The notes under the pieces: model-generated | Told to the model about the DNA's origin: nothing | The model's input: the letters and a program-made list of their open reading frames with translations, nothing else | Databases searched by the model: none | Shown: positions 37,977-38,654 of the stretch, one piece after another | Position numbering within the stretch: position 1 is the first letter of the stretch | Layout: the number at the start of each line of letters is the position of its first letter | Translations under genes and position numbers: made by a program | Source: a virus | IMG/VR virus record: IMGVR_UViG_3300044712_000732 | Span: 381,776-445,775 of that record | Reading direction: 5' to 3' (one strand) | Length of the DNA stretch: 64,000 nt

Positions 37977-38654
37977 TTAAAATAACAATTCAATACTACC
38001 TTTTAAAATATCTTTCCATCGACATGTTTTACCTGTAATATGATCAATTACAATATCGTCCCTAAGTCTATATGTTCTTCTTTTTGTCCCCCGACTACCA
38101 TCACCAATTTGATCATTTCTATAACTTTTAATTTTTTCATAGGATTTTTGATCTTCTATAACTTTTAATTTTTCTGTTAATCTTTCCCAAGCTAAAATTT
38201 CATTTTTATATTGATCCCTGGTATCTTGAACTTTAACTTGAAGTCCTGTTGGAATATGTGTCAATTGAACACACGATGCAACTTTATTCACATTTTGTCC
38301 ACCTGCACCCGAACTTCTAATATATTTTTTTGTAACGGCACTACGATCCAATATAAACTCTGATTCTTTTTCGGAATTCATTATAGCAACTGTTACGATG
38401 CTTGTTTGTACTCTATTGTATTTTTCTGTTGGTGGAACTCTAACGAAGCAATGCGATCCACTTTCGTTTCCGAAGAATTTGGAAACATTATGACCCGTAA
38501 TTCAAATATTGGTAATACTATCCTTTTCTTCAACTTTATAAGTGAAGTTATTATTGCGACAACTTTTTAAATAAATATTAGTTAAATCTTTAACTAAAAG
38601 CTTAGAATCGTTGCCACCTTCTGAAGCTCGAATTTCGATTACAATTGTTTTCAT
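37977..38654 (-). CDS. class-I peptide chain release factor, RF1-type (PxT), lacking N-terminal domain 1; reading frame interrupted by one in-frame TGA at 38504..38502 (codon 51)
   Basis: VIEIRASEGG..FESG-like NESGSHCFVRVPPTEKYNRVQTS (RF1 '[14 protein letters not shown]'), SGAGGQNVNK (GGQ), and RTYRLRDDIVIDHITG are colinear with RF1 domains 2-4. The TGA is in frame with both halves. Confidence 0.6.

Follow-up and report, generated by a model that had tools for sequence, protein, structure and literature searches.

Recoding control of release factor (RF) synthesis is textbook knowledge for the cellular gene prfB, which is broken early by a UGA in poor context and whose completion hinges on inefficient termination; in Escherichia coli the recoding site is codon 26. 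Leaky stops can also set the ratio of two products, as UGA readthrough does for coat and A1 of phage Q-beta. Here we analyse a phage gene for an RF1-like factor whose codon 51 is an in-frame TGA. It lies at positions 37977-38654, on the minus strand, of a 64,000-nucleotide stretch of viral DNA (the window; positions 381,776 to 445,775 of IMG/VR record IMGVR_UViG_3300044712_000732). Like prfB, this gene is interrupted early by a UGA in poor context, and ten phage relatives hold an essentially identical prfB cassette. Unlike prfB, the window gene goes on in the zero frame, as expected of readthrough rather than frameshifting, and its site lies in domain 2 (codons 35-56 across the family) rather than in domain 1. 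The factor is moreover RF1-like, and if it does not read UGA, the loop would sense host RF2 and not itself.

Recoding in a viral termination-factor gene is known also from giant viruses: the class-I RF gene of Mimivirus and Megavirus requires one frameshift and one readthrough event, read as prfB-like autoregulation (Jeudy et al. 2012, PMC3521657). Those genes likewise contain internal stops decoded by recoding, but they are of the eukaryotic/archaeal eRF1 type and belong to viruses of amoebae, whereas the phage factor is of the bacterial RF1 type without domain 1 and its family displays many independent, interchangeable recoding solutions. A survey of more than 12,000 bacterial genomes found prfA without programmed recoding and the prfB motif never with TAG (PMC12421855). 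'Jade' phages also encode an RF1 presumed to support UAA/UAG termination, but theirs adjoins tRNA(UCA), tryptophanyl-tRNA synthetase (TrpRS) and recoded lysis genes in a 'code-change module' (Borges et al., bioRxiv 10.1101/2021.08.26.457843); in the window phage the RF gene alone has a stop, and we found no suppressor or recoded genes. RF-H (PrfH) is a class-I RF homologue that, like ours, lacks domain 1 (Baranov et al. 2006, PMC1586002). PrfH has a distinct, conserved 'anticodon' region and is coupled to RtcB, whereas the phage factor keeps a PxT motif, scores 70.9 bits against a TIGR03072 cut-off of 166.65 and has no rtcB neighbour. Plant eRF1, autoregulated through readthrough and nonsense-mediated decay (PMC5397192), shares with the phage gene a leaky stop at which a near-cognate tRNA competes with a release factor. 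In plant eRF1 and Q-beta, however, the stop lies at the end of the open reading frame (ORF) or in a 3' element, whereas here it lies inside the factor's own coding region, in double-stranded DNA phages. The portions of the huge-phage survey drawn on here list RF1 and RF2 genes and report no internal stops (PMC7162821), and in the literature we searched, mostly outside subscription journals, we found no description of recoding in phage RF genes.

Results

An in-frame TGA in the codon-recognition domain

The gene comprises 225 codons on the minus strand, from ATG 38654 to the terminator TAA at 37979-37977 (TAA in almost all family members), with a single internal TGA. This codon 51, the recoding site (38502-38504), stands in the surroundings AAT ATT TGA ATT ACG, giving the context AUU-UGA-A. 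The frame, the stop and the translation given in the original prediction were all reproduced from the sequence, and its view that a functional product requires local UGA decoding is supported; the distance from the stop to the PPT tripeptide had been put at 40 codons and is 23. Codons 1-50 (38505-38654, minus strand) encode the first strand, a long helix with a conserved EGGxDSKL tip and most of the next beta-hairpin of the codon-recognition domain, on the evidence of sequence, a match to positions 100-194 of the PCRF profile, the ratio of nonsynonymous to synonymous substitution (dN/dS, about 0.16-0.3) against nine orthologues and model secondary structure. Codons 52-225 (37980-38501, minus strand) encode, by sequence, Pfam and NCBIfam, what remains of domain 2, PPT included, together with domain 3 (GGQ) and domain 4. 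Within this second segment, PPT itself, the RF1-type PxT 'anticodon' motif, occupies codons 74-76 (38427-38435, minus strand) in VRVPPTEKYNRVQTS, and the catalytic GGQ, identified by sequence and by the Pfam RF-1 domain, occupies codons 118-120 (38295-38303, minus strand).

In-frame stops recur across the family

We scanned IMG/VR and found 501 relatives, of which the best 80, representing 77 unique loci, were analysed. In 73 of the 77 loci the gene holds one or two in-frame stops or a +1 frameshift site, all inside codons 35-56. One zero-frame TGA was found in 47 loci, two TGAs in 12, TAG in 2 and TAG plus TGA in another 2; a +1 frameshift at CTT-TGA, CTT-TAG or CTT-TAA is needed in 10, and the gene is uninterrupted in 3. 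The only member with a stop beyond the recoding stretch, L033 (IMGVR_UViG_3300009149_000025), has TAA at codon 182 besides TAG (followed by T) at codon 48, and is probably a decaying copy.

Zero-frame stops occupy columns 51, 52, 53, 58, 68 and 72 of a 72-sequence alignment, within 22 columns, and the chance of six random sites clustering in such a span is 4e-5. Comparison of orthologues bears out the conservation of the stop: the window's column (72) has a stop in 29 aligned relatives. Among the huge-phage orthologues in GenBank, all of which end in TAA, TGA stands at the window's column in L001-L003 and at other nearby columns in L001, L003 and L004. In the ten frameshift relatives (L006, L055/56, L069, L071, L075, L076, L082, L052, L077 and L059) the site falls at the same positions as the zero-frame stops, and RF homology picks up exactly in the +1 frame. 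Their prfB-like cassette reads GGAGGGGT CTT TGA C/G, with a Shine-Dalgarno (SD)-like GGAGG, a 3-nt spacer and CUU-UGA, and was found in contigs of 52-59% guanine-cytosine (GC) content; two AT-rich frameshift members have TGY CTT TAG C and no SD-like element.

In a neighbour-joining tree each major clade has its own recoding solution, and the uninterrupted close relatives L103 and L105 sit inside stop-bearing clades. Sister lineages have swapped TGA and TAG at one column in three places (L009 and the window's clade, L029/32 and L031/35, L043 and L044); it is therefore the stop as such that is maintained, and not a given codon or amino acid. Codons 35-56 of the RF genes contain 71 TGA and 1 TGG, against 119 TGG and no TGA in the remainder of the same genes. 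Across 185,579 species genomes, the family appeared on four contigs binned with metagenome-assembled genomes (MAGs; L109, L110, L111 and L116), all with stops. Other matches stood at ordinary cellular-RF1 identity, and one that we inspected was a full-length RF1; the family is all but confined to phages.

Both sides of the stop are under selection

Comparison with the nine orthologues shows purifying selection on both gene halves: dN/dS is about 0.15-0.3 for codons 1-50 and for codons 52-225, with synonymous sites near saturation (proportion of synonymous differences, pS, 0.5-0.8). The family has diverged to less than 40% identity with the recoding feature still conserved. The AAT ATT TGA ATT site also occurs in L109 (91% amino-acid identity) and in L100/L101, which come from independent samples and argue against the sequencing error once considered for the TGA. 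A Logan contig (L108, SRR26046407) is identical to window positions 27977-43555; it is the same sequence and adds no independent confirmation.

A conserved stop, zero-frame selection downstream of it and the lack of an alternative start together point to readthrough. No ATG, GTG or TTG occurs in the 25 codons past the TGA of the window gene, and the PPT-bearing stretch that leads from the stop to the first Met (codon 93) is highly conserved, so the downstream half could not be made by re-initiation. Internal initiation past the stop was rejected for want of a nearby start and because relatives do not conserve the Met at codon 93. Frameshifting (+1 or -1) in the window gene was likewise rejected: after AUU UGA A, homology continues in the zero frame, not in the shifted frame that a prfB-type site would need, and the +1 frame is an unrelated 46-residue ORF. 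Ribosome hopping from AUU over UGA to AUU fails in most relatives, where take-off and landing codons mismatch (ATT TGA CTG, GGC TGA ACT), and stop-free relatives are equal in length, with one residue at the stop column.

The stop context favours weak termination

The bases following the in-frame stops show a bias toward weak termination. In 74 unique contexts the next base was A in 43, C in 22, G in 8 and T in 1; A or C, as expected of programmed readthrough, thus follows in 65 of 74, and the prfB site has C at +4. By comparison, T comes after genuine TGA terminators in 14 of 32 cases in the window and 19 of 68 in the huge-phage genome LR756502; C does so in 1 of 32 and 2 of 68. A U at +4 is reported to reduce termination read-through in bacteria, in the portion of that study used here (PMC5289835). 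When Leu comes directly after the in-frame stop, its codon is CTN in 22 of 23 cases (CTG in 16), whereas 49% of the other Leu codons of the same genes are TTR (P ~2e-7).

We found no conserved RNA structure at the stop: RNAalifold returned 0 pairs in 24 orthologues, and the window RNA around the stop folds with z = -0.09. This lack of structure excludes a selenocysteine insertion sequence (SECIS) element. A selenoprotein was rejected on the absence of a hairpin 3' of the UGA and because the stop shifts columns and may be TAG.

The leakiness of UGA is the established basis for inferring Trp insertion. Alignment column 51 is Trp in E. coli RF1 and Phe in RF2; phage members without a stop there have Phe (30), Leu (7), Trp (1) or Tyr (1). 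If a TGG at this column mutated to TGA and near-cognate tRNA-Trp then decoded it, the protein would regain the residue it had before. Column 72, where the window's stop lies, varies among Glu, Leu, Lys, Thr, Ser and Ile and should accordingly accept Trp.

Recoding is confined to the release factor gene

Elsewhere in the window TGA is a genuine stop, as first proposed. It ends 13 of the 54 ORFs of at least 150 residues, and there are 204 TGG codons for Trp within those 54 ORFs; ATGA stop/start overlaps, first put at dozens, number 11 (ORFs of at least 90 residues). Codes 11 and 4 give coding densities of 0.85 and 0.86, a comparison that rests on the 64-kb window because the 6.6-kb loci around related genes are too noisy (tRNA arrays, short flanks). 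A host in which TGA is a sense codon (code 4 or 25) was rejected on the 13 of 54 long ORFs ending in TGA, on the 11 ATGA overlaps and on the presence of the device in phage contigs of 52-62% GC.

ARAGORN found no tRNA(UCA) in the 64-kb window and none among 266 tRNAs in the loci around 80 related RF genes. Among the 46 tRNAs that the same program called in the complete 642,428-bp LR756502, the anticodons UCA, CUA and UUA are missing, as is tRNA-Trp; long ORFs of this genome end in TAA (150), TAG (37) or TGA (25). A scan of the window for coding-flanked TGAs returned only two candidates, the RF gene and a weak tail of 39 codons (23192-23683). In LR756502, once candidates inside longer ORFs of another frame had been removed, the RF gene was the only convincing TGA-interrupted gene. 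When 20 other window proteins were aligned to related phage DNA, no in-frame TGA appeared in 6,850 codons. The many TGA-containing genes, higher code-4 density and tRNA(UCA) that mark 'code-switch' phages were therefore not found in this material, and the proposed suppressor tRNA with late genes full of recoded stops is not supported. Nor could a UGA suppressor account for TAG at the same column, and it would disable the +1 frameshift variants. Taken together, these comparisons show stop recoding that is specific to the gene, not a genome-wide change of code.

The scans yielded some side observations. At 23192-23683 (plus strand) of the window, a 123-residue ORF ends in TGA and is followed by 39 weak-scoring in-frame codons that overlap the next gene (23610); this TGA is probably an ordinary terminator. 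In LR756502, repetitive genes at about 163,000-177,000 and 557,000-563,000 give antisense pseudo-ORFs with apparent TGAs, which are false positives, and the block at 163-177 kb was rejected as recoded because its candidates are Ala/Val/Pro-rich antisense frames of such genes. ARAGORN also called, beside the RF gene of L031 (1493-1569), a tRNA with an 8-nt anticodon loop and a four-base anticodon 'ccta', and beside that of L077 (6395-6470) an amber suppressor tRNA(CUA); the recoding site of L077 is CTT TAG C (+1).

The product is an RF1-type factor without domain 1

Compared with Pfam after masking of its stop, the 225-residue protein hits the C-terminal half of PCRF (profile 100-194 of 194, E 6.8e-17) and RF-1 (PF00472; E 1.7e-27, 96 bits against a cut-off of 35), and SGAGGQNVNK at codons 114-123 supplies the GGQ of the bacterial class-I RF superfamily. 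Of the NCBIfam models, prfA scores highest (172 bits, covering positions 104-333 of 347); prfB (124), PrfH (71) and ArfB (44) follow. All these scores lie under the equivalog cut-offs (400 for prfA) because about 103 N-terminal residues, domain 1, are absent, and with them the full-length RF1 architecture. Sequence comparison with the PDB gave 115 bits to RF1 and 76 to RF2. An AlphaFold2 model of a close relative, P0005 (mean predicted local distance difference test score, pLDDT, 85.6), matched ribosome-bound Thermus thermophilus RF1 in Foldseek with a template modelling (TM) score of 0.84 (E 6e-22). In this model a long helix (15-34) precedes a beta-hairpin with strands 38-44 and 47-54, and the window's stop falls in the second strand. 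PPTE and GGQ are invariant in two of our alignments (A1 and A5), and SPF, the RF2 tripeptide, is absent from the window gene and all of about 80 relatives. By sequence and model, then, the phage factor is an RF1-type class-I RF of domains 2-4 only, and not RF2, PrfH or ArfB. Pfam, NCBIfam, Foldseek and PDB comparison all agree with the original prediction of an RF1-type factor with PPT and GGQ and no domain 1.

The PxT motif predicts UAA/UAG-specific release, despite decoding residues that deviate from RF1. In the helix tip the phage family invariably carries Asp (GGxD), against Glu in RF1 and RF2 (GGxE). At the position of the Gln that reads the third base in RF1, the window's clade carries Val or Ile (CFVRVPPT, window 38427-38447, minus strand), and it has QTS instead of HTS. 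SPT occurs in relatives L026, L034 and L077, and PST, PDT or PPN in other members. To judge from these residues, codon specificity may differ from that of canonical RF1.

A 168-residue ORF (38685-39191, minus strand) immediately precedes the RF gene and shares its frame; TAA and 10 codons separate the two, and the ORF stays close to the RF gene in the nearest relatives (L007/8, L009, L012 and L103). A tblastn extension and a 16-bit gain in PCRF score hinted at a detached domain 1. These hints were outweighed by an hhalign probability of 0.8% against a domain-1 profile of 40 cellular RF1s, and relatives do not consistently keep the ORF next to the RF gene or in its frame.

Genome setting and database annotation

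The nearest matches of the RF gene, at 45-60% identity, are in huge phages of 595-735 kb (LR756501-04, LR745206 and LR756511), which upholds its first description as phage-encoded. According to the parts of the huge-phage survey drawn on here, genomes of this group above 634 kb form the Mahaphage clade, with predicted Bacteroidetes hosts (Al-Shayeb et al., PMC7162821). The 91%-identical copy (L109) lies on a contig binned with a Muribaculaceae MAG. The window has 25% GC and short, densely packed genes. Its tRNAs are six tRNA-Leu (CAA, UAG x2, UAA x2, AAG) at 27671-28975 (minus strand), with no other tRNA in the 64 kb; relatives' RF genes often lie beside tRNA arrays (the 266 tRNAs of the fetched loci). 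The neighbourhood at 30216-43375 encodes ART-PolyVal, NAD-dependent DNA ligase, TPM phosphatase, LemA, RNA ligase, ClpP and Band_7, that is, accessory or repair-type genes and no structural or lysis genes; rtcB is absent from the immediate neighbours of the RF gene (LemA, TPM, DNA ligase and small ORFs). LR756502 encodes an RF3-like GTPase (record 583264-584619, 26% identity to E. coli RF3, E 8e-38), though its sole class-I RF lacks the RF3-contacting domain 1.

Public entries of 225 residues with 'W' at the site come from short AT-rich contigs and reflect translation of TGA under code 4. Gene calls on long contigs instead break the gene into fragments of 50 and 134-175 residues. Miscalled entries include P0003-P0008, P0014 and P0018 and loci L100-L102. 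Database entries for the family are thus systematically wrong and could pass for evidence of recoded phages; what the gene displays is probably a gene-specific, family-wide recoding gate and not a sign of a phage code switch.

Discussion

We propose, at a probability of roughly 55%, that synthesis of the RF1-like factor is gated by a leaky in-frame stop that acts as a termination-efficiency gate. Ribosomes would meet UGA at codon 51 in the poor termination context AUU-UGA-A. If host RF2 acts, an inert 50-residue fragment would be released and no factor made. With RF2 slow or in short supply, a near-cognate tRNA would insert a residue, most likely Trp via tRNA-Trp(CCA), and the 225-residue factor would be completed. 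Through this competition, the factor would be made in inverse relation to RF2 activity. UAG variants would respond to RF1 activity instead, that of the phage factor included; in frameshift variants the competition would be the same as in prfB, and relatives would reach one logic by nearby stop codons, by UAG or by an SD-CUU-UGA-C +1 site. We infer readthrough as the decoding event, Trp as the residue and host RF2 as the negative input. Sensing of low RF2, mentioned at the outset as an alternative, is the reading that the comparative data favour.

The product would presumably terminate at UAA and UAG without RF3-dependent recycling. Domain 1 is dispensable for peptide release in vitro, and a truncated RF1 works in vivo (PMC1586002), so a phage RF1 without this domain is expected to be active; it would lack the contact with RF3. 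Its purpose may be to top up UAA/UAG termination as host capacity drops in a long infection, which is plausible because TAA ends 60-70% of phage genes.

Several considerations weigh against a termination-efficiency gate. Its physiological logic, compensation at UAA, is conjecture, and readthrough could be very inefficient in a host with normal RF2. A truly RF1-like factor cannot relieve a UGA deficit, and the loop would then not be closed as it is in prfB. The TGA/TAG swap shows that RF2-specificity of the sensor is not strictly required. A suppressor tRNA beyond the 64-kb window is excluded by analogy with LR756502 only, and ARAGORN may miss atypical tRNAs.

Specificity is where a true autoregulatory loop would part from this proposal: the phage factor would read UGA (and UAG) despite its PxT-type motif and end its own synthesis, as RF2 does in prfB. 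Relatives do hold the canonical prfB cassette with its RF2-specific UGA, stop identity in prfB follows the factor's own specificity (PMC12421855), and the family uses UGA and UAG without a matching change in the decoding motif, whose residues depart from RF1 (GGxD, Val/Ile at the third-base Gln, QTS, some SPT). Yet sequence and fold are clearly nearer RF1 than RF2 (172 against 124 bits; 115 against 76), and the loop is an RF1-like PxT-E...GR.(H/Q)TS with no SPF; we consider such autoregulation unlikely. Similarly improbable, in our judgement, is a constitutive attenuator, in which the leaky stop caps output at a few percent, since excess RF is harmful, and senses nothing. RF overexpression is toxic in bacteria (PMC12421855), either leaky stop, TGA or TAG, seems acceptable, and no stimulatory RNA element accompanies it, all of which would suit a simple cap. 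A weak promoter or weak initiation would do equally well, however, and the repeated evolution of stop-dependent devices, the responsive prfB cassette included, suggests selection for dependence on termination; competition between RF and tRNA at a stop is, besides, inherently RF-sensitive.

The remaining explanations deny the gene any gate of its own. Under a code switch, a suppressor tRNA would turn TGA into Trp late in infection and the RF1 gene would be one among many recoded genes. In its favour, the window covers only 64 kb of the phage genome, and TGA-recoded Jade phages with RF1, tRNA(UCA) and TrpRS do exist, but their RF1 gene is in standard code (bioRxiv 10.1101/2021.08.26.457843). Across the window, the 266 nearby tRNAs and LR756502 there is no tRNA(UCA); the RF gene is the sole convincing TGA-interrupted gene in the window and those 642 kb; coding density hardly differs between codes 11 and 4 (0.85 against 0.86); and the 119 other Trp codons of the RF genes are never TGA. 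With TAG at the same column and +1 variants that a suppressor would ruin, we regard a code switch as very unlikely. A pseudogene, or an assembly or sequencing error, is hardly credible. Decay of an accessory gene most often shows as a single internal stop, and the relative with an extra TAA at codon 182 may be decaying, but the identical site recurs in independent samples and the feature is conserved over a family diverged to less than 40% identity. The dN/dS of about 0.2 on both sides of the stop, at near-saturated synonymous sites, the non-random stop context and the lack of frameshifts or additional stops speak against decay as well, and the early suggestion of a pseudogene can be set aside.

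A bolder form of the termination-efficiency gate, doubtful but with an appreciable chance of being right, holds that a termination-capacity sensor arose separately at least eight times (six readthrough columns and two frameshift positions) in a minimal, presumably RF3-independent RF. At its strongest, this RF would be omnipotent, reading UGA as well as UAA/UAG, and would close a prfB-like autoregulatory loop by way of zero-frame readthrough.

What appears new here is the prfB principle in three interchangeable forms, within one small region of a phage-restricted RF1-like family. If the proposed gate is real, the family would offer a natural series of readthrough and frameshift sites for studies of stop context and RF competition. 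Bacteroidota are hosts that do not use Shine-Dalgarno sequences, and the series would be usable for such hosts. The minimal RF without domain 1 may be of use in genetic-code engineering. For the phages themselves, a gate of this kind would mean that huge phages monitor and buffer the termination capacity of their hosts.

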